A stretch of DNA of 24,597 nt from a virus (lineage: Duplodnaviria; Caudoviricetes): IMG/VR virus record IMGVR_UViG_3300022179_000969, positions 1-24,597 of that record. One strand, written 5' to 3'. A program made the position numbers and the translations under genes. Shown here piece after piece: positions 8,626 through 23,438 of the stretch (position 1 is its first letter; every line of letters begins with the position of its first letter). The notes below the pieces were generated by a model that did no database searches, was not told the origin of the DNA, and saw nothing but the letters and a program-made list of their open reading frames with translations.

Positions 8626-10023
8626 TTAAAGGTCTTTTCCGCGCGAATCGCGCCAGCCCAGCGTTGCAATCTTCATGACCCATGTTCCGCTGACCCCAAC
8701 ACTGCCGCGGCGACTTCTGATTTGCGCTGATGTGTTTGTCATGACTTCGATCTTGGTCATACCTCCGATTGATGAATTTGATAGAGAAAGAGATGACGCC
8801 AAAGGAGCCGCTGTTTGGCTAGGGTCCAAATCAGCCGTGTTCAGATCGCTGAAGTAGGCCGGGATGTTGTTCGCGTTGCCGGGGTCGGATACGTTGTAAT
8901 TGAAGATCGCACCAACACGAATTCCGGTAGGAATTGAGCCCAGCGTGCGAGTGATAGCAGTCGCTGCTTCGCCCGTTGTGGTGATATCCAGCACAGGCGT
9001 TTCAAGCTGGAACAAATCGCCATCTTGGAAGAAGCGAACCCACTGTGCAGAGCCATTTGTGCGGGCAGACCCGATGCGCCGGAACTGGGTGTAATTCGCT
9101 GGGAGTGTCGGAGAGGTAGCGGACAGCGAAAAAAGCACATCTGCCACGCCGGTATCGGGGCGGCGGATCAGGTGGAAGTGGTACGAGGTGTTGTTCGCAG
9201 GCGAGCCGGTGTCCAGGCCGCCGTTGCCGGACCCAACTGCCCATGCGCTGGTGGTCTTGCTGATTGCGGATGCAAGATTTATCAGTGCGACATTTGTGCT
9301 GTCTGCGGCTTGTCCCGCTGCGATTGACATAGTGGCGCTACTGCCAGCCGTGGAAAGTGTCAGGCCAGCGATGTACGAACGCGGAACCGTCGAAGCGGCG
9401 GCTGGGAGCGGGTCCAGCACAACCCAGTCGGTGCCGTCAAACTCTACATCTGTTTTTTGCCCTGCTGCGAGAGTGGGGTCGACTTTTGCCCCTGTACTGT
9501 CGTACTGTTTCAGTGCGGTAGCGGTCTGCCCGCTTACAGCCAGCGTACATGCGCCAGATGTTGCGGTGTGGAAATTTACCCGAAACCGCTGCGGAGCGGC
9601 GAGCGAAGCGATGGCTGGAACTGGGGTAAGCGTGTACGCTGGCGCCGTGCCCGCGCTTGTGAACGCCGTGTACAACTGCGTCTGGAGGTCCGCCTTGACT
9701 ACATCCCCCGTCATGGCAGCAAACACGTCCGCGATCGCGGCAGCATTGAAGCGCAGTGAAACTGTATCTGATGTCGTCCAAGCCAGAGCGGTGGTGTTGT
9801 CCTGGGCCCGTACGATGGTGAAGGTGTCTGTCGTCCGGGCTGTGACCTTGACGATCTCGCGCACCAGGGAGGCGTTCTCCAGGGTGACGTAAAAATACTG
9901 CCCAGCAGACAGCGAAGGAAACAGCGCGCCGGTACCCCCGACAACGGACATCGTCAGGTCGCCAGCGTTGATGCCGACCGCGAGCTGGGTTCGCGCGAAG
10001 TTGGTGAATTTAATGTCAGCCAT
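8626..10023 (-). CDS. Tail fibre/receptor-binding protein, 465 aa
   Basis: N-terminal anchor domain (FTNFARTQLA...EIVKVTARTTDTFTIVRAQDNTTALAW) followed by Thr/Ala/Ser-rich beta modules, including PTLPANYTQFRRIGS; downstream of the adaptors. Confidence 0.8.
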   Translation of the reverse strand: MADIKFTNFARTQLAVGINAGDLTMSVVGGTGALFPSLSAGQYFYVTLENASLVREIVKVTARTTDTFTIVRAQDNTTALAWTTSDTVSLRFNAAAIADVFAAMTGDVVKADLQTQLYTAFTSAGTAPAYTLTPVPAIASLAAPQRFRVNFHTATSGACTLAVSGQTATALKQYDSTGAKVDPTLAAGQKTDVEFDGTDWVVLDPLPAAASTVPRSYIAGLTLSTAGSSATMSIAAGQAADSTNVALINLASAISKTTSAWAVGSGNGGLDTGSPANNTSYHFHLIRRPDTGVADVLFSLSATSPTLPANYTQFRRIGSARTNGSAQWVRFFQDGDLFQLETPVLDITTTGEAATAITRTLGSIPTGIRVGAIFNYNVSDPGNANNIPAYFSDLNTADLDPSQTAAPLASSLSLSNSSIGGMTKIEVMTNTSAQIRSRRGSVGVSGTWVMKIATLGWRDSRGKDL

Positions 10024-14671: not shown

Positions 14672-14699
14672 AGTGTATGTTATTGCAGCCAAGAGTCAA
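14672..14699 (-). promoter_or_regulatory. Sigma70-like promoter for the scaffold/capsid genes
   Basis: TTGACT-16 nt-TACACT overlapping the portal stop codon. Confidence 0.6.
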
Positions 14700-16756
14700 C
14701 CCCCGCCGCCCGTCTGCTGGTTGCTGACCAGGTTCGATTCTTGACCGCCCATAGGGGCGCCGCCTGGACCCGTTGCCTTGGTACCCTGCGGACCTGGTGC
14801 AGCCATCTGTTGCGGCTGCATCGCTTGCTGCTGGCGTTTGAGTTCTTCCTGGACCTCGAGCTGCTCGTCCGACGGCACGATGTCGTCCACAGGCATAGAC
14901 AGCCCGCGGGCCACTTCGCGCAGGATCGCAGCGCGCCCGGGGATCCCCACAATCTCGGCGTCCATGGGGTTCATGGTGGCCTGCAGGAACTCGACGCGGC
15001 GGACGTTCAGCTGGTCGCGGTTGGCCAAGGTAACAGCGCCACGTGGGATGATGGAGCAGTCGCCCTTGATGTCCGCGCGGTCAACGTACTGCATATTCCA
15101 GTTGTACTGGGACGTCACAGTGGGGCCGATGACCTCGAAGTCGATGTGCATGATGACCTGGCGGATGCCCTTGCCGGCGGAGCCCATGAGCATGGACAGG
15201 CCGGATGCGGTACGGCCAGCGCCGCCCACCTGACCGTCGCCATACACGTAAGCTGGCACGCCCGACTGCTCGTCAGCCATCTTGCCGAACTGCTGGTACA
15301 CCTGCAGCAACGGGCCGGAGCGGTCGTCTGGCTGGTTGAAACGAATGGCGGGCTGGCCGGACCCAGTGGGGTCACTCAGGGTCTGCCAAATCTTCCATGG
15401 GAACATGTTGGTGACTTTGGAGCCTTGCGGCAGGCGGTCCGTGGACACCTCAACCTGCGGGCCGGAGGCAATGCCCATGTTGTTCGCCAGAGCACGCGCC
15501 GACGCGTTGCACATGGCCTGCACGTCCTCGATCAGCTCGGGGATGCCGGAGCCCCAGAACGAGCCAGGGCGCTTGACGAAGCTGGTGCAGCGGTAGGGCT
15601 TGTCGCCCAGGGGGTCGTAGTTCAGCGTGGCCTTGATGACCCAGCGCCCGACCAGCCACACATTGGCGTCGTACATCTTGGCCACATCTGGCACGTCAGT
15701 CTCGTCCAGGCCCCACTCACGCAGCAGGCGGCCCGACACTCGGCCCCAGAACTCCAGCGAGTCGTACTTGTCGGAGTCGCTGCGCCAGATGTTGTACTTG
15801 TTCTCCAGGTCGCTCTTGGTGTACTCGGCGGACCACAGCCACTCGGAGCTGTTGCCCTCCGCCATCACGGCGCGGATAGCCTCGTCGTCGTACCCGGGCA
15901 CGCCCAGGAGGTCGGACAGGTCGGCCTCACTCAGACGGTGGTGCTCGAGCGTGTAGCCGTCGGACAGCTTGGTGATGCCCGGCTCCACGTAGAACCGGAA
16001 GGGGTCCACGCGCGAGTACGTAGGCGCCAACTTCTCTTCGACTTCTGGTGTGAACGACCCGTCTGGCTGCTTGACCCAGTCTAGCGAGCGCACCCGGCGC
16101 ACGGTGGGGCCCTTGAGGATGGCCAGGGGGTACGTGGTCAGGTCAGACAGGAATGCGTCAAACGCGTCCACCATGCCGCCCTCGGTGAACTGGTCTTGGA
16201 TAAACTTCTGGTGCCGCTCGGCGCGGTCCGTGGCGTCTTTCATGACGGCGGTGCGCGCGTCGTCGTCGGCCTGCTCCTTCATCTGGTCCATGACGACAGG
16301 GTCGATGGGCATGCCGCTCTGGATCACCTGGATGACGCGCTGCGCCAGCGACGCAGTGATGGTTTCCACGAAGTCGGGCGGCATCTCTGGATCTGGCGTT
16401 GGCTTGAGCGCGAACGGCACCATACCCTCGTCCAGCAGGATGTCGCGCAGCCAGGACTCGGCGCCGCGGCACTTCGTCTCGGTGAGCATCATGTAAATCT
16501 CGGACCCGCCGGCGTCCCGGATCTGGGCCAGCTTGTCCGGCTCGTAGTCACCCTTGCGCTGGCGCAGGGCTTTGAGCATGTTGCGCTCTATTGGCTGCTT
16601 GGCATCCCGGGCTTGCTCCCAGCACCGGCGAACGTACCCGGCAAGACTCTGGATGTAGGGCTGCGCCTGGCGTAGTTCCGCCGCACGCGTGGCGTCCTGG
16701 GCCGCCTGTTCGGCGTCCAGCGTACCGTTGCTTTTGAAGTTGACGAGCCCGGCCAT
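14696..16756 (-). CDS. Portal protein, 686 aa
   Basis: Size, position after TerL, motifs FWGSGIPELIEDVQ, ADEQSGVP and RTASGLSMLM, and a Gln/Pro-rich C-terminal tail. Confidence 0.92.
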   Translation of the reverse strand: MAGLVNFKSNGTLDAEQAAQDATRAAELRQAQPYIQSLAGYVRRCWEQARDAKQPIERNMLKALRQRKGDYEPDKLAQIRDAGGSEIYMMLTETKCRGAESWLRDILLDEGMVPFALKPTPDPEMPPDFVETITASLAQRVIQVIQSGMPIDPVVMDQMKEQADDDARTAVMKDATDRAERHQKFIQDQFTEGGMVDAFDAFLSDLTTYPLAILKGPTVRRVRSLDWVKQPDGSFTPEVEEKLAPTYSRVDPFRFYVEPGITKLSDGYTLEHHRLSEADLSDLLGVPGYDDEAIRAVMAEGNSSEWLWSAEYTKSDLENKYNIWRSDSDKYDSLEFWGRVSGRLLREWGLDETDVPDVAKMYDANVWLVGRWVIKATLNYDPLGDKPYRCTSFVKRPGSFWGSGIPELIEDVQAMCNASARALANNMGIASGPQVEVSTDRLPQGSKVTNMFPWKIWQTLSDPTGSGQPAIRFNQPDDRSGPLLQVYQQFGKMADEQSGVPAYVYGDGQVGGAGRTASGLSMLMGSAGKGIRQVIMHIDFEVIGPTVTSQYNWNMQYVDRADIKGDCSIIPRGAVTLANRDQLNVRRVEFLQATMNPMDAEIVGIPGRAAILREVARGLSMPVDDIVPSDEQLEVQEELKRQQQAMQPQQMAAPGPQGTKATGPGGAPMGGQESNLVSNQQTGGGG

Positions 16757-16759
16757 GTG

Positions 16760-17002
16760 TCAGTACAGGGCGACGATGAGGGTGGCGGTAGTGCCGGTAC
16801 TGTTCACGCTCCACGCCTCGACCGGCAAAAAAGTGCCCGCTGGCACCGCGGTGAATGTGATCGCGGCGGAGTCTTTGGGGTTGAATTGGACAGTGACGTT
16901 ACCAACTCCTCCAACCCACAGGCCCCGGGCAGTTCCGTTAGGGAGCATGGTGGCGTTCGCCGGTGTGACCGCGCGCGCTGTCGTGGCTGAGGGTGTTAGC
17001 AT
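16760..17002 (-). CDS. Head-spike base protein (RcGTA Rcc01079-like), 80 aa
   Basis: AVTP...L...ARGLWVGGVGNVTV...TFTAVPAGTFLPV...V..TGTTAT.IVAL pattern; AGGAG RBS. Confidence 0.8.
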   Translation of the reverse strand: MLTPSATTARAVTPANATMLPNGTARGLWVGGVGNVTVQFNPKDSAAITFTAVPAGTFLPVEAWSVNSTGTTATLIVALY

Positions 17003-17031: not shown

Positions 17032-18435
17032 TCACGTCCAGGCTCCCATGGATACCCGCTCGACCCGGTGCTCTGTGTGCCCCATGGTGCGGCCGAAGAT
17101 GCCGCCTTTGTCGTGGTGCAAGCAGGCGTAGGTCAGCGCGTCGCACATATCACTCGCGGGGTGGCTCTTCTCTGGCTTGCTGTCTGTCTCGCCCTTGGTA
17201 TTGATTTTGTACCGGTACTTGCCGGCCAGCGCAGCTATGAGCTGCGTGCACCGCGGATCAACCAGCAGCGCCGGGTTGCCGTTCACCGTGCGGGTCATGT
17301 ACGACTCCCCCGCCCCGATGCGTGCCGAGATGTTGTTCGTCAGGGCCGCCTTGAGGGCGAACCCCTCGTTCTTGAACATGTCCGCCACGGTCTTCTCGTC
17401 CGCCTGGCCGCGCTGGAACGCCGCCGGGTCGATCACACACGCCACCACGTGGTTCCGGTACTTCGACGCGATCAGCGGTTTGAGTATCTCCCGGATAAAC
17501 CGGAGTGCACCCATGCCGCCCTCGAGCCCCGTCACGGCGTCCAGCACCATGACCCGGCCGTCGTACGTCTGCTGCGTGATCACTGCGGTGGGGTTGAGTC
17601 CGGCGTCCAGGCCGATGACCAGCGTGCTTCCTATGGGCTTGAGCGGCTCCTTGGCCACGTGCACATCCCGGCTGAAACACCGGAACACCGGCATGCCGGC
17701 CAGCGACCGGCCGAACTCGCCGTCGACGTACACCGCGATCCAGTCCTCCGTCTTGCCCTCGCACAGATTCTCGTAGTACCCGTCTGGCAAGTGCTGTACC
17801 CAGTCCGCTTCCGGCGAGCGCCCACTGGGCTGCAGTGTCACGTGCACGTTGCTCGGGGGTGTCGTCAGCAGGGTCTCCCAGAACGTATCCGCATCTGGCG
17901 GGTTGGTGGCCGCCCACACTTTGTGGATCTGCTTGCCATTGTCGTCGCACGCGCCGACCCCGTTCATCGTTTTGTCCGGGTAGCGCCCCAGGCGCCCGGT
18001 GAGCGCGTTGTAAATGTCCGGGTGGATTTCCCGGAACTCGTCCATCATGCCGAACGTCAGCTGCAGAGACAGCAGTCGGCGCACATCGTTGGCATCGTCC
18101 AGCCCGCGGAACAGCACCTCGCACTCCACGTCGTTGAACTTCAGCAGGAACTTCGACTCGGTCTTCATCAGCACCCCGGCCTGGCCGTCTGGGAACCATT
18201 TCAGGAAATCCGGGATCGTTGTATCCCACAACATCTGGCGCGTGTTACGCACTACCGCGCAGCGACTGCGCCTGACCCCATCCCGGCACTTGGCTACTTT
18301 CGCGGCCTCGTAGGCGATCTTCAGGATCGACGCTGTGGTCTTGGTCGACCCTACCGGCCCGACGATAAAGTTGGCAAATTTGTCCGCCGTGAGGAATGCC
18401 TCCGTGCTGGGGACTGGGGTGTAAGCTATGTGCAT
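17032..18435 (-). CDS. terL: Terminase large subunit, 467 aa
   Basis: Walker A GPVGSTKT, Walker B FGMMDE, motif III ATNP, and nuclease acidic residues in IGLDAG and SDMCDALTY. Confidence 0.95.
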   Translation of the reverse strand: MHIAYTPVPSTEAFLTADKFANFIVGPVGSTKTTASILKIAYEAAKVAKCRDGVRRSRCAVVRNTRQMLWDTTIPDFLKWFPDGQAGVLMKTESKFLLKFNDVECEVLFRGLDDANDVRRLLSLQLTFGMMDEFREIHPDIYNALTGRLGRYPDKTMNGVGACDDNGKQIHKVWAATNPPDADTFWETLLTTPPSNVHVTLQPSGRSPEADWVQHLPDGYYENLCEGKTEDWIAVYVDGEFGRSLAGMPVFRCFSRDVHVAKEPLKPIGSTLVIGLDAGLNPTAVITQQTYDGRVMVLDAVTGLEGGMGALRFIREILKPLIASKYRNHVVACVIDPAAFQRGQADEKTVADMFKNEGFALKAALTNNISARIGAGESYMTRTVNGNPALLVDPRCTQLIAALAGKYRYKINTKGETDSKPEKSHPASDMCDALTYACLHHDKGGIFGRTMGHTEHRVERVSMGAWT

Positions 18436-18446
18436 GCGGGTTTTGT

Positions 18447-19280
18447 CTATCCTGGCAAGATCGGGATGGTGATGGTGCCGCTAGCCGATCCCACTGGAAT
18501 GCTAAAGGCCACGCCAGTCTGCGCGGTGTAATCAACTCCTGCGGTTGCGGTTATGTCTGCGGTGTTGACTGTGCCAGATACTCCACCAACGGGTGCGGGT
18601 GCATCCAGAAACACAGTAACAGTAACAGAACCATCAAACTTTGTGCAATCAACGCTCGGCATGGACGCATTGGCCGTCAATGGGGTGAATGTCACCTCCA
18701 TGTAGGGTCGTTGTGACTCAGTAGAGCGTTGTGTGCTGGCAATGTCGAAGTCGCCGCTTTCTACGGTAGCTGTAGCAACCTCAAGAATCAACCAAGGATT
18801 AGAAACAACCCCGTTGATTACATCTTGCACCAGTGCGGTTAATCCTGCTCCGCTGACTGTAAATCGTTGGTTCCCTGTGGATGGGATGGTGCCAGTTGCC
18901 AGAACTGTGTTATCTATGTCTAACGCACCCAAAGCGCCAGCCGTTTGCCAAGGAGTTGCAGCAGCGTAGTTATTCCAGCTTGCGCCCGCCTCAGTGGCTG
19001 ATCTGAGAATCTTTTTGCAGTTGATAAGGCGGTTTGGCGCTGTGACGTTGTTTAATCTAAATAGGCTTATGACAACCGAAGAAACCGATACTGGCCCCGT
19101 GATATTGGATAGTCCGGTGAATTGCAGTAGAGATTTTCGCTCTTGCCCAGCGACCGCAAGAGATACCTGAAAGCGATCAACCGATCCGCTCGTTGCCGTG
19201 GGGTTTGATTGCTGGATAACAGTATCCAGAACACCCGGATATGTGTCTGCGGTACGCCCGCCAATGGTTACAGTTGTCAT
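18447..19280 (-). CDS. DNRLRE/CBM96-like carbohydrate-binding domain plus C-terminally truncated Calx-beta domain, 277 aa
   Basis: DTVIQQSNPT...RKSLLQF...ASWNN...RPYMEVT (DNRLRE-like), then VTVTVFL...TADITATAGVDY...TITIPIL-stop (Calx-beta strands A-E only). Confidence 0.75.
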   Translation of the reverse strand: MTTVTIGGRTADTYPGVLDTVIQQSNPTATSGSVDRFQVSLAVAGQERKSLLQFTGLSNITGPVSVSSVVISLFRLNNVTAPNRLINCKKILRSATEAGASWNNYAAATPWQTAGALGALDIDNTVLATGTIPSTGNQRFTVSGAGLTALVQDVINGVVSNPWLILEVATATVESGDFDIASTQRSTESQRPYMEVTFTPLTANASMPSVDCTKFDGSVTVTVFLDAPAPVGGVSGTVNTADITATAGVDYTAQTGVAFSIPVGSASGTITIPILPG

Positions 19281-21175
19281 ACGTTGATCGCCCCCAAATC
19301 ACGCGCACCCGTCAATAGGTCGCCAAAGAAATCTATGCGCGAACCAACGTCAGCGCCTCCGCTAACCCCATAGACGCTTGGCGTATAGTCTGCATACGCC
19401 GTAGGTGTCGCCGATGCCCAAGGGCGAACGCCGTTAATCTGCGCTGTCGAACTGTTGGACGCCAAGAAGTAGTCGGTGTTTTCTACGCCGGGGCTTGTTC
19501 CGCCATTCGTCAGCAGTGTTGCCTCTGTTCCGTTTGTCGCGCCGTCTGATGTATTGCCGGGTGCATAGATCAGGTTATTGCTGATGCGAACATCAGACGC
19601 CAGCCCAGCGTCCGTGAGTGATACGAAACTGAAATGCGTAGACAGTGCAACGTCCGGTTTATACGCGGTGTTGTTGTAGACCCAAATGCCAACCGATGGT
19701 GGCGAACCTGCCGCATTGCCCCCAAGCCCAAGACCGATGGCGTAGCTGTAGCGAGTGCGGAAAATGTTATGCCGAATACTGGCGTAGTTGGCTACTGCAA
19801 AGTTTGCCGGGTAAAGTTCAGAGCCTGCGCAGTAGTTCCGCTCTGCAATCACGTTTTCAAGATAGCCCAGATGGTTCACTGACTGCGGCCCGCAATACAG
19901 TGCATAACCGCCTCGCTCAGAGTTGTCAACAATGTTGCAGCTCTGATAGACGTCATGTGTAGACTGACCTCCGTTGTCAAATCCAGTTGTAGTCCATTCG
20001 CGCACACTCAGGGCGTTCCGGGTTGGGCCAGCTTTGGCAAACCGACTATGCGAAATGACGCCACTCTTGACGCCTTGGACACGGGCAACGTGCGTTATCG
20101 GTGAGTCGTAGGCGTTCGTGCCGAGAATCGCTAGGCGCGTGGTGCGGGACGGGAATAATCCGATTCCAGGCTCTCGTGCGCCTGTGTCGTCGTACATGCC
20201 CGTAACATCGCACTCGTAAATGCAAAGCCCGGTTACATCCTCAGAGCCAATCCCAATCCGACATGCCAGAACATTAGATCGGGCGATCAGGTGATTGCTG
20301 CCAGCGGTCAACGTAAACGGGTTTTTGTTTGCGCCATATGTTCCGTTGTCATCAAAATCAACGTCATAGATTCGCCAGCCGTTGACAGTGTTCAGCACGC
20401 ATGGCGATGCATCCGTGCTCATGATGAACATGGGGTTCGCGCCGCTGCCGTATTTCGTAAACACACCGCCGTTTGTAGTATTTGGGAAGTTGATCGAGCC
20501 GCCAAGGTTGAACGTGCGTCCTGCCCTCACAAATACACGTTTGTATGTTGCCAGGGCTGTGTTGAAGTTTGCCGCCGTGGTGACTGTAGCGACATTGGCA
20601 CCAACTGGCACCCCGTCAACGCCAGCCACTGGCCCGGTATCGCTCACATAAACCGTATCCGCTGCAAAAACGGTATCCTGCGCTGTGACGGTTATGGTCT
20701 TGCTGATGGTGTCGGTGAACATGACCCCGCTGTCATTCCAGCCAAACACATCCAGAGTGATAGTCTTGGAGCCAGCAGTCCAGTAAACGTGTGCAGATAC
20801 TGGCCCCCAAGCCTCGTTCTTGCTCTCGTTGCCAGCCTCAGTGCCTTGCTGCCATGTGCTTCCGTCCTCGTCACCAAAGCGCCAGCGGTACAGCAGGTTG
20901 TGGAATGGGTAGTTTGTGAGAGTGGTTGCAAGCGTTTCTGAGGCATCACAGTGGACATAGAATGGAGAAACCCCCGTCGCTGACGATGTGCCGTTTACGC
21001 TGAATCTGGGGATGATTGGCGTTGGATAGATCGTCACCGTTGCTGACACGCTCGATGGCGTTGCGCCAGTGATCCCGCTCAGGGTGACGCTAAAGGTTTT
21101 GCTGGATGGCGGTGGCGAAGAACCCCCACCCATGGACGCAATGATGGACGCCAGGAGCGTTTTGTTCAGGCCCAT
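19277..21175 (-). CDS. Putative head-spike/depolymerase-like protein: N-terminal peptide, Calx-beta F-G strands, PKD-like domain, right-handed beta-helix; 632 aa
   Basis: PFYVHCDASET...YRWRFGD...AHVY..AGSKTITL (PKD-like); repeated Asn-ladder strands (IAERNY, IRHNIF, VYNNTAY, ISNNLIY); terminal DLGA. Confidence 0.75.
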   Translation of the reverse strand: MGLNKTLLASIIASMGGGSSPPPSSKTFSVTLSGITGATPSSVSATVTIYPTPIIPRFSVNGTSSATGVSPFYVHCDASETLATTLTNYPFHNLLYRWRFGDEDGSTWQQGTEAGNESKNEAWGPVSAHVYWTAGSKTITLDVFGWNDSGVMFTDTISKTITVTAQDTVFAADTVYVSDTGPVAGVDGVPVGANVATVTTAANFNTALATYKRVFVRAGRTFNLGGSINFPNTTNGGVFTKYGSGANPMFIMSTDASPCVLNTVNGWRIYDVDFDDNGTYGANKNPFTLTAGSNHLIARSNVLACRIGIGSEDVTGLCIYECDVTGMYDDTGAREPGIGLFPSRTTRLAILGTNAYDSPITHVARVQGVKSGVISHSRFAKAGPTRNALSVREWTTTGFDNGGQSTHDVYQSCNIVDNSERGGYALYCGPQSVNHLGYLENVIAERNYCAGSELYPANFAVANYASIRHNIFRTRYSYAIGLGLGGNAAGSPPSVGIWVYNNTAYKPDVALSTHFSFVSLTDAGLASDVRISNNLIYAPGNTSDGATNGTEATLLTNGGTSPGVENTDYFLASNSSTAQINGVRPWASATPTAYADYTPSVYGVSGGADVGSRIDFFGDLLTGARDLGAINV

Positions 21176-21177
21176 GA

Positions 21178-21567
21178 TTACGCCTTGGTACCGACGACGT
21201 CGTAAGTGTCAGCGCCTGTCCTGACAAGCGCACACCAGGGGTTGGTGGCGCCGGTCGTGCGAACATCGGTGACAGTGGCGGTTCCGTCGAAGGTGATGGT
21301 GCCCTTGAACGCGCAGCCGAAGTTGACCTGGAGGCCCGTGTTGACCGTCGCCACCTGGGCCGTCGCACAAAGCAGGCTGTACCCGTCATCGTCGTTGGTC
21401 AGCTCCCGGGACGTGAACGAGGCGTACGACCCACTGTTGGCCCCGATGAACACGTCGCCAGCGTTGCTGCTGAACCCGATGGGCAGGTTGTGTTCGTTGA
21501 TGATGGGGTGCAGATCGCGGCCTTCGCCACGTGCGGCGCCTGCCGGTAGAGTTTGGTATGCGGGCAT
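21178..21567 (-). CDS. Hypothetical, probably virion surface protein, 129 aa
   Basis: AAGGA RBS; the C-terminal beta module ending ALVRTGADTYDVVG resembles fibre-tip domains. Confidence 0.65.
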   Translation of the reverse strand: MPAYQTLPAGAARGEGRDLHPIINEHNLPIGFSSNAGDVFIGANSGSYASFTSRELTNDDDGYSLLCATAQVATVNTGLQVNFGCAFKGTITFDGTATVTDVRTTGATNPWCALVRTGADTYDVVGTKA

Positions 21568-21661: not shown

Positions 21662-21922
21662 TCACGCAGCTACCCCAGAGACGATCTTGTGCATGCCCAC
21701 AGACAGTAGGAGCAAGGCTTCAGCGCCAGGCGACGCAGCTTTACCAAACAGGCCAACTTCGACGGGGCTGCCACCGCAGTCTATCACCCACGCCAGCTGG
21801 TGGGCGTCGCCAAACTCCTTCGCCTCGATCTGGTCGGCCAGTTTACGCAGCGCGTTCGGTATGCTGGTTGTGGCGTGCATCTCGGGAAACTCAACCACTT
21901 TGAGTTGCGGGTGTGGGGTCAT
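21662..21922 (-). CDS. Hypothetical protein, 86 aa
   Basis: ATG 21922 overlaps the terS stop (ATGA); MTPHPQLKVVEFP...IPNALRKLADQIEAKEFG. Start revised from the track's 22336. Confidence 0.7.
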   Translation of the reverse strand: MTPHPQLKVVEFPEMHATTSIPNALRKLADQIEAKEFGDAHQLAWVIDCGGSPVEVGLFGKAASPGAEALLLLSVGMHKIVSGVAA

Positions 21923-22509
21923 TGCGCTTCCTGGTTCTGCAGTTCCCGCAGGAACGATGGGTCGACGAGCGGCGCGTATGAGGGGGCGCCGGGGGTGCGG
22001 GCTGGGGTCGCGTCTTCCACCATCTCCAGGGTGGTCGGTTTGGAGGCTGGGGGTGTGCCCTTGAGCTCCATGCTCTGGCCACCGATGTTGATGGAGATGC
22101 TGAACCCTTCGCCCTGGGCCTGCTGCTTGGACTCCTTGGGCTCGAGCTCGCCCATCTTGGCGAAGTACTGCAGGACGTTCATCTTCTGGGCCAGTGTGGT
22201 CTCGTGCCCCATGGCCTGCACAAACACCTGGTCGGCCAGCTGGTCGGCCATCAACGACGTCTTGTTTCTGAACGTGACACCACTGGCCTCGAACTCGGCT
22301 TTTTGCTTGGCGATGGTGAGCAGGAAGGGCGGCCACTCCTGGAGTTTGGCCCAGCGCTCACCCTCGAATCCGTAGCGGGCAGCGACCACCCCCGGGTCCT
22401 CAAGGCCCATGGCGATTGCGCGAATCATCTCGGGGTCGATGCTGACTTGCGATTTAGGTACGTGACCTACCTCAAGCGGGCTATCGTCCACATCATAGTC
22501 GTGGCTCAT
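21919..22509 (-). CDS. Putative terminase small subunit, 196 aa
   Basis: N-terminal HTH-like segment (IAMGLEDPGVVAARYGF), two long helices, a C-terminal beta strand GFSISINIG, and first position in the packaging module. Confidence 0.7.
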   Translation of the reverse strand: MSHDYDVDDSPLEVGHVPKSQVSIDPEMIRAIAMGLEDPGVVAARYGFEGERWAKLQEWPPFLLTIAKQKAEFEASGVTFRNKTSLMADQLADQVFVQAMGHETTLAQKMNVLQYFAKMGELEPKESKQQAQGEGFSISINIGGQSMELKGTPPASKPTTLEMVEDATPARTPGAPSYAPLVDPSFLRELQNQEAQ

Positions 22510-22517
22510 GGAGCTGG

Positions 22518-22545
22518 AGTGTACGACCAATTTTTACTTTTCCAA
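22518..22545 (-). promoter_or_regulatory. Possible promoter giving a near-leaderless terS mRNA
   Basis: TTGGAA-16 nt-TACACT ending 8 nt before ATG 22509; no Shine-Dalgarno. Confidence 0.4.
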
Positions 22546-22652: not shown

Positions 22653-23438
22653 CTACCACCCGAACTTTTCCGCGAGGAGCTTTCTCCAGTTCTTCTGGCG
22701 TTCGATCAGTTCCGCTTTTTTCTGGTCCTGGCTCTTTGCGCGTTCGCCGACCCGCCAGTCCCACCGTACGTCGCGGCACTCGATCGGGACCGACTGGAAC
22801 GCGGCTATAGCCTTTTCTGGGCCAACTAATCTACAAGCAGATGCGAATCGGCCCGCGTTCACGCCCAAATGCTTGGCCCACTGCGCCAGCGTGCGTTGCT
22901 CCCCGTCGACCAGAATCCACACATTGGCACGGGTGTTGTTCATCTGTTCTTCCGCGGTTTGCCACGCACAATTTTGCGGGCGGTACCCGAGGTCGTTGTC
23001 CAGTCGTCCGATGGAATGCGCCGGGCTTGGCTTCTCCCCCATGTCCAGGCAGAACCGGCGAAACCCGTCCAGTGAGCCAAATTTCTCTCCGTTCTCACAC
23101 TTGCCTCGCCAGCGCTCGCAGATCGTGATGCCCCTGCCGCCGTAGTTTTTGTACGCCTTGGAGTTGGGATCGAGGCACCTCATCAGCATACCCCACCAAG
23201 TTGCATGGAGTGGGTGCTTGTAGCCGGCTGCAGCTTTTGCGTCCTGGGCGCGCTTGCGACACGTCGGGCATGGAGCCGCTAACTTTTTTGCGTACTCGTG
23301 CGTCTGGACGAACTCAGTTTTGCATTTGTTGCACTTCAACCGGTAGAAATACTTGTAGCTCCCCCCAGGAGTTCGGTGCACCCGGTCTACCGCAATGGCG
23401 ATGCAGCCTGAAACTTCTTGTCCTATAAAGTTTGACAC
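22653..23438 (-). CDS. HNH-type free-standing (homing) endonuclease with N-terminal Zn finger, 261 aa
   Basis: CNKC...CPTC; WWGMLMRC..PN...YKNYGGRGITICERW; SIGRLDNDLGY.PQNCAW.T..EQMNN; GTG start with AGGAG RBS. Confidence 0.88.
   Translation of the reverse strand: MSNFIGQEVSGCIAIAVDRVHRTPGGSYKYFYRLKCNKCKTEFVQTHEYAKKLAAPCPTCRKRAQDAKAAAGYKHPLHATWWGMLMRCLDPNSKAYKNYGGRGITICERWRGKCENGEKFGSLDGFRRFCLDMGEKPSPAHSIGRLDNDLGYRPQNCAWQTAEEQMNNTRANVWILVDGEQRTLAQWAKHLGVNAGRFASACRLVGPEKAIAAFQSVPIECRDVRWDWRVGERAKSQDQKKAELIERQKNWRKLLAEKFGW

Follow-up and report, generated by a model that had tools for sequence, protein, structure and literature searches.

We analysed a 24,597-nucleotide (nt) stretch of phage DNA (the window; positions 1 to 24,597 of IMG/VR virus record IMGVR_UViG_3300022179_000969, estimated to be 44% complete) that carries a cassette of two overlapping genes on its minus strand. 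The upstream gene encodes a 632-residue protein, hereafter the big protein (P0002), in which a leader and a short hairpin precede a PKD-like domain and a right-handed beta-helix. The downstream gene encodes a 277-residue protein, the small protein (P0001), in which a CBM96-like carbohydrate-binding module is followed by the first five strands of a Calx-beta domain. An initial annotation of this DNA had claimed that a single Calx-beta domain is divided between the two genes in permuted order. Its coordinates and sequences proved to be as described, and family-level profile alignments of both halves confirm the division: judged by homology, each gene encodes a complementary half of one Calx-beta fold, the last two strands being encoded first. 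We refer to the A-E half at the end of the small protein as the socket and to the F-G hairpin of the big protein as the peg (Table 1).

The assignment of the two halves was made against a profile of 115 positions built from 24 complete bacterial Calx-beta domains, which came from a metagenome scan with the small-protein family that returned only generic Calx-beta proteins. The C-terminal profile of the small family covers positions 10-75 of this reference (hhalign, probability 99.5, E 6e-23), and a profile of 24 big-protein N-termini (query 20-56) covers positions 76-112 (probability 95.6, E 1.2e-8). The socket thus ends at position 75 and the peg starts at 76, so that the halves abut without gap or overlap within the E-F loop. 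A complete A-G sandwich in one chain and in the normal order is not found, since positions 76-112 sit on the upstream protein. A locally shuffled database gave no matches to the hidden Markov model (HMM) of the complete domain, and the control alignments of PKD with Calx-beta and of the big N-terminus with PKD returned probabilities of 1.2 and 0.8, respectively. Among the ways in which its reading could fall, the initial annotation had named that residues 26-51 belong to the adjacent PKD domain. In the homologues P0296 and P0299 the leader runs straight into an intact PKD domain with no F-G strands, so the PKD domain does not need them; together with the negative profile controls, this rules out the hairpin as part of the PKD domain.

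On the small protein, the Pfam Calx-beta family (PF03160) matches residues 211-259 at profile positions 16-65 of 119 (E 0.0023, 18.4 bits), a score under the Pfam gathering score of 27. The homologue P0072 clears that score (60.8 bits), yet covers only profile positions 13-83 of 119. Likewise, when compared with chains of NCX1 CBD1, the small-family profile matches residues 15-75 of 139 in 2FWS and stops there. The small protein itself ends ...ITIPILPG, directly followed by TAG. Calx-beta domains feature an acidic, Ca2+-binding E-F loop; the socket ends PILP(G) where most complete domains of the comparison set go on with acidic residues. Such residues before strand F are kept in some pegs (L005, P0056 and P0051), and the window peg has PPPSSK instead. 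Folded alone by AlphaFold2, the socket reaches a predicted local distance difference test (pLDDT) score of 53-79, compared with 82-98 per 10-residue block for the CBM96 region from the same alignment. That region matches Pfam CBM96 (PF24517) at 26.5 bits, with a cut-off of 26, and its top Foldseek matches are 8WAB (E 1e-7, target template modelling (TM) score 0.75-0.79) and 7VBO (E 5e-7), the target TM-scores of these top matches spanning 0.69-0.79. By their PDB titles, these structures are a chondroitin-sulfate-binding and an alginate-binding module.

A short piece of the socket also occurs in other company. In sequencing runs X1 and X2, contigs match only a 128-nt block of the window (18454-18581, the last ~43 socket residues), with unrelated sequence on both flanks; at the downstream loose end, read on the gene strand, a stop stands right after ...ILP. 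The block resembles a mosaic unit common to otherwise different phages.

On the big protein, the peg reads KTFSVTLSGITGATPSSVSATVTIYP. It is the only F-G match in the window by six-frame scan (36.8 bits), and its F28 is invariant in 24 homologues. The leader of the window protein is ~20 residues long, and in alignment A2 a similar one occurs in the 20 big homologues without a longer extension at the N-terminus; residues 9-17 of the leader are modelled as a helix in the homologue P0043 (AlphaFold2, pLDDT ~50), and the big proteins of L003 and L004 have a fibre-like N-terminal extension of ~115 residues. The Pfam PKD match of the window protein is weak (E 0.057) and is stronger in the homologue P0084 (PKD_4, 7.8e-9), and by Foldseek this region resembles the PKD domains of ColG (target TM-scores 0.81-0.84). 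The beta-helix core has 845 homologues at E<=1e-3, including P0072 and P0100, in which Pfam Beta_helix is found. The P0043 model is similar to GH136, GH28 and GH87 enzymes, phage tailspikes and the AlgE4 epimerase (Foldseek), which points to a carbohydrate-active fold, and the core is predicted to be a polysaccharide-active enzyme. No PHROG family matched P0001 or P0002 at E<=0.1, nor the big proteins of L003, L004, L005, P0043, P0084 and P0103 or the F-G-less P0296 at E<=0.01. The initial annotation had spoken of phage head proteins and of a spike whose N-terminal peptide would be free to bind the capsid. Nothing marks the two products as head proteins, the one having a beta-helix carbohydrate-active fold, the other being CBM96-like and the cassette varying in position, and nothing shows binding to the capsid.

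P0103 has two tandem F-G pegs (residues 248-302) after two complete Calx-like domains and before its PKD/beta-helix core, and may offer two docking sites. P0113 (215 residues) consists of leader, peg, PKD and the start of the core, followed directly by the last Calx-beta strands with a stop at strand E, and has the look of an internal deletion that fused the big gene with the last part of the small one. Loci from bacterial metagenome-assembled genomes (L057, L059, L061, L065, L080, L085, L087 and L091, from Bdellovibrionales, Gallionellaceae and others) carry tandem PKD/beta-helix core paralogues and no pegs or sockets.

The split is a regular feature of these proteins. We found 39 relatives of the small protein, down to 28% identity, and 35 of the 38 aligned members end within two residues of the same column. 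The three exceptions are P0036, which is cut short, P0032, which has a 22-residue extra tail, and P0040, in which a complete Calx-beta domain is followed by a second that again ends at strand E. The initial annotation had suggested looking for the same order in related phages, and the big gene precedes the small one, with overlapping stop and start, in five of five phage records (the window and four related IMG/VR records); a related-locus search with a smaller alignment returned only the same four. The position of the cassette among the structural genes differs between phages. Two other runs supply contigs of ~88% identity to the window that cross the junction of the big and small genes, with no indel listed there. 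Record G001 (45,619 nt; L050/L051) comes from a close relative of the window phage, with ~93% identity between the small proteins. Although it is listed as a linear record of 100% completeness, its big gene runs over both record ends; G001 is therefore a circularly closed or permuted assembly.

We next asked how peg and socket are distributed. We scanned 2,820 stop-to-stop segments in six frames from the five phage records, of which two are 100% complete. Every genome had a single peg (36.8-44.8 bits) and a single socket (71-117 bits), always adjacent. All other segments in these records scored <=8.7 bits, with no other Calx-beta piece and no complete Calx-beta domain. In 55 bacterial-genome loci with homologues of the PKD/beta-helix core, which are not known as hosts, there were neither pegs nor sockets. 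Among 150 representatives, 27 carry the peg; the HMM used for this count was itself derived in part from the sequences counted. Both halves can also stand on one chain: P0043 (706 residues) has a peg at its N-terminus, a socket at its C-terminus and no CBM96 module, and in P0062, whose N-terminus may be incomplete, the core likewise ends in a socket. After the socket, the C-terminus of P0032 and residues ~647-712 of P0062 form an acidic, aromatic repeat tail (Y-V-x-D-type, ending YVV), which might occupy the socket of its own chain or have another binding partner.

The median pairwise identity of the socket is 70.8% versus 35.9% for the CBM96 region, with the socket higher in 590 of 666 pairs, and homologues retain the peg even where core identity is only 28-66%. 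Over seven units, peg and socket identities correlate with a Mantel rho of 0.72, a value reached by 2 of 5,040 permutations; rho falls to 0.39 between peg and core and to 0.05 between socket and core. Single pairs show the same pattern. The window and P0043 share 74% identity in the peg and 68% in the socket with only 30% in the core (CBM96 not being applicable), and L005 and the 8,734-nt contig pair share 74% and 76% in peg and socket with 38% in both core and CBM96. The reverse is seen between the window and the 36,169-nt contig pair, which have 66% identity in the core and 58% in CBM96 versus 37% in the peg and 44% in the socket. Peg and socket types co-vary, independently of the domains carried.

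These features suggest that the two proteins dock by fold complementation of one Calx-beta sandwich, the reading that we consider probable. The overlapping big and small genes would be co-translated; the F-G peg of the 632-residue enzyme would fit into the socket, the open half-domain of five strands (A-E) with which the 277-residue protein ends, and, by filling its open face, would complete a seven-strand sandwich. The CBM96 module would thereby be tethered beside the PKD/beta-helix enzyme, in about equal amounts. A conserved socket and typed pegs would let phages exchange either payload domain while the joint stayed compatible.

Several observations weigh against such docking. The initial annotation had proposed a Calx-beta profile search with each fragment. 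The C-terminus of the small protein matches PF03160 with the sub-threshold score given above, and the window peg alone scores 6.7 bits against the complete-domain HMM, within the background of 3-7.5 bits for PKD strands; the same position in peg homologues scores up to 19.4 bits. Overall, the peg is no more conserved than the core (median identity 36.8% versus 34.7%). Two of the seven units in the co-variation test were paired solely on the equal size of their contigs. Moreover, peg and socket form the two extremities of the cassette, and recombination swapping only the interior would give the same co-variation without contact. The AlphaFold2 model of P0043, with both halves in one chain, shows no gain in confidence (pLDDT ~58-61 for the peg and 46-73 for the socket). 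Finally, P0072 (861 residues) and P0100 (996 residues) have an A-E socket fused directly to PKD, with no F-G anywhere in the chain. Therefore, a socket can exist without a peg in the same protein, and such a socket would be either self-sufficient or completed by a peg that another protein supplies. P0072 forms a cluster of its own, and a search with it was dominated by repetitive multi-Calx-beta proteins, with no second fusion of its type among the 120 matches listed. As to geometry, strands E and G point the same way in the Calx-beta topology. We infer that this fits P0072 and P0100, where PKD directly follows strand E.

Three of these points, namely recombination of the cassette interior, the unimproved P0043 model and the direct run from A-E into PKD, would suit an explanation without docking. 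In it, the A-E piece would fold by itself as a trimmed but self-sufficient beta-sandwich, the F-G-like hairpin would be a distinct N-terminal element, for example a linker or an oligomerisation strand, and each would be what remains of a formerly complete Calx-beta domain. We think this unlikely, given that the halves abut exactly within one profile, that an orphan hairpin of 26 residues is retained while the cores around it diverge, and that each genome has one of each half, always adjacent. It also fits poorly with a socket that is the most conserved part of the small protein and that folds with low pLDDT when modelled alone. Alternatively, peg and socket could each dock to a third protein, of the virion or the host, that offers complementary strands or an edge. 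Sockets with no peg in the same chain (P0072 and P0100) and the two tandem pegs of P0103 would be at home in such an arrangement, as would P0043 with both ends, from which chains could also form. The phage records, two complete genomes among them, show no further Calx-beta piece for this role, their next score being the <=8.7 bits cited above, and the bacterial loci searched show none either, with the reservation already made about hosts; we regard a third partner as improbable.

An artefact, be it through misassembly, pseudogene formation or breakage of a fusion gene, is very improbable. We found no point that supports it, and the lower G+C of the cassette is a sign only of acquisition. With the C-terminal half ahead of the N-terminal one, neither one stop codon nor one frameshift could produce the split, and the common stop position in 35 of 38 homologues comes from independent assemblies. 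Together with the same gene order in five records and the contigs from other runs that span the junction, this upholds the view of the initial annotation that the split is not the product of a nonsense mutation, a frameshift or misassembly.

The nature of the payloads of peg and socket suggests a function. Solved CBM96 modules bind acidic polysaccharides, as a published account (PMC9971899) and the titles of 8WAB and 7VBO indicate. Since the enzyme resembles glycoside hydrolases, lyases, tailspikes and AlgE4, and CBM96 modules bind such polymers, the pair is, on sequence and fold resemblance, probably an exopolysaccharide depolymerase with a detachable binding module. A broader and more tentative idea, to which we give rather less than even weight, is that the split Calx-beta domain is a portable peg-and-socket connector by which any protein with an F-G hairpin could join, non-covalently, any protein ending in A-E. 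Binding modules and depolymerases could then be mixed and matched in several cognate types, the two-peg P0103 could carry two partners, and P0043, with both peg and socket, could form head-to-tail chains.

Table 1. Features of the two-gene cassette and its neighbours in the window. Residues are numbered within each protein.
Feature	Residues	Position in window	Strand	Basis or remark
Peg of big protein, Calx-beta strands F and G	26-51 (K26-P51)	21023..21100	minus	hhalign, six-frame scan
Socket of small protein, Calx-beta strands A-E, ending at E-F loop	200-277	18450..18683	minus	hhalign, Pfam
Leader (MGLNKTLLASIIASMGGG) and Pro/Ser linker of big protein	1-25	21101..21175	minus	sequence
PKD-like domain of big protein	52-165	20681..21022	minus	Pfam, Foldseek
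Right-handed beta-helix core of big protein	166-632	19280..20680	minus	homologues, Foldseek on P0043 model
CBM96-like carbohydrate-binding module of small protein	1-199	18684..19280	minus	Pfam, AlphaFold2, Foldseek
Big gene, 632-residue protein (P0002)		19277-21175	minus	PKD/beta-helix
Small gene, 277-residue protein (P0001)		18447-19280	minus	CBM96-like and Calx-beta A-E
ATGA overlap of big-gene stop and small-gene start		19277..19280	minus	sequence
Small-gene stop TAG		18447..18449	minus	ATG of large terminase gene (ends 18435) 11 nt further on
129-residue protein		21178-21567	minus	first gene of the listed minus-strand order
Large terminase (TerL)		17032-18435	minus	downstream of small gene
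Portal		14696-16756	minus	downstream of TerL

The ATGA overlap, as judged from the sequence, would give translational coupling of the big and small genes, and a stop/start overlap is also present in L003, L004 and L005. The G+C content is 0.53-0.56 over the cassette (18001-21000) and 0.59-0.64 in the adjacent kilobases; this low G+C and the differing cassette position in L002-L005 both fit a mobile, acquired two-gene module. Neither DNA nor protein matches were found in the phage GenBank collection. Among the sequencing runs listed as containing the sequence, the DNA runs have shares of <=0.11 and none is an RNA run.

Around the cassette, the window holds head, tail-fibre, lysis and internal-virion genes beyond the portal gene, with a separate tail-fibre gene at 8626-10023. 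Between TerL and portal lies an open reading frame (ORF) of 80 residues (16760-17002, minus strand) that matches phrog_12296 ("tail fiber protein", E 8e-15). An ORF of 81 residues lies directly upstream of the big gene in L005 (3924-4169, plus strand) and is similar to it by eye, and this small protein may travel with the cassette. An HNH endonuclease gene (22653-23438, minus strand; phrog_3377, E 1.4e-40) lies upstream of the packaging region, and a 203-residue ORF at 21919-22530 has no family match.

If the docking is real, a natural fold has been divided between two genes, in permuted order, and put to use as a joint, which would give phages a new means of assembling carbohydrate-recognition machines from several parts. 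It would explain why a truncated domain is the most conserved part of these sugar-binding proteins. Protein engineering would also gain a small natural connector, made up of a tag of 26 residues and a receiver of 75, of which at least three sequence types exist. For annotation, it would mean that truncated domain matches at gene ends can be functional halves and not errors.

In the portions of the literature covered by our search, we came across no work on split Calx-beta domains and none on phage depolymerases that use strand complementation. Carbohydrate-binding modules are usually modules inside larger enzymes, according to the same account (PMC9971899), whereas the module described here is a separate protein with a half-domain tail. 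Relative to canonical Calx-beta domains (PF03160; NCX1 CBD1, PDB 2FWS/2DPK/3GIN), each half is homologous to its part, but the domain is cut at the E-F loop, with strands F and G coming from a different gene upstream.

Fold complementation between chains is itself already known from pili and engineered split domains, and the split Calx-beta joint would be a variant of it. In chaperone-usher pili, donor-strand complementation fills an Ig-like sandwich that lacks its C-terminal strand with the N-terminal extension of another subunit. At the sequence level the arrangement here is alike, with an incomplete sandwich in one chain and the missing strands on the N-terminal extension of its partner. 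By contrast, two strands (the F-G hairpin) would be donated here and one is donated in pili, there is no chaperone or usher, and the fold is Calx-beta. The partners, too, are an enzyme and a carbohydrate-binding module from overlapping phage genes, and their joining is predicted from sequence. In the anchor-and-branch receptor-binding complexes of phages, one tailspike receives another on its N-terminal part; these complexes likewise involve two adjacent genes for carbohydrate-recognising proteins, with docking parts conserved and payloads varied, but the joint proposed here is a single fold spread over two chains and not a dedicated docking domain. Cohesin-dockerin consists of two complete folds, and SpyTag/SpyCatcher is a man-made, covalent system in which an Ig-like domain is split into a short strand piece and the remainder. 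Like cohesin and dockerin, peg and socket would be a portable module pair that couples carbohydrate-binding and catalytic proteins; unlike either system, they would represent a natural and presumably non-covalent split of a Calx-beta domain.

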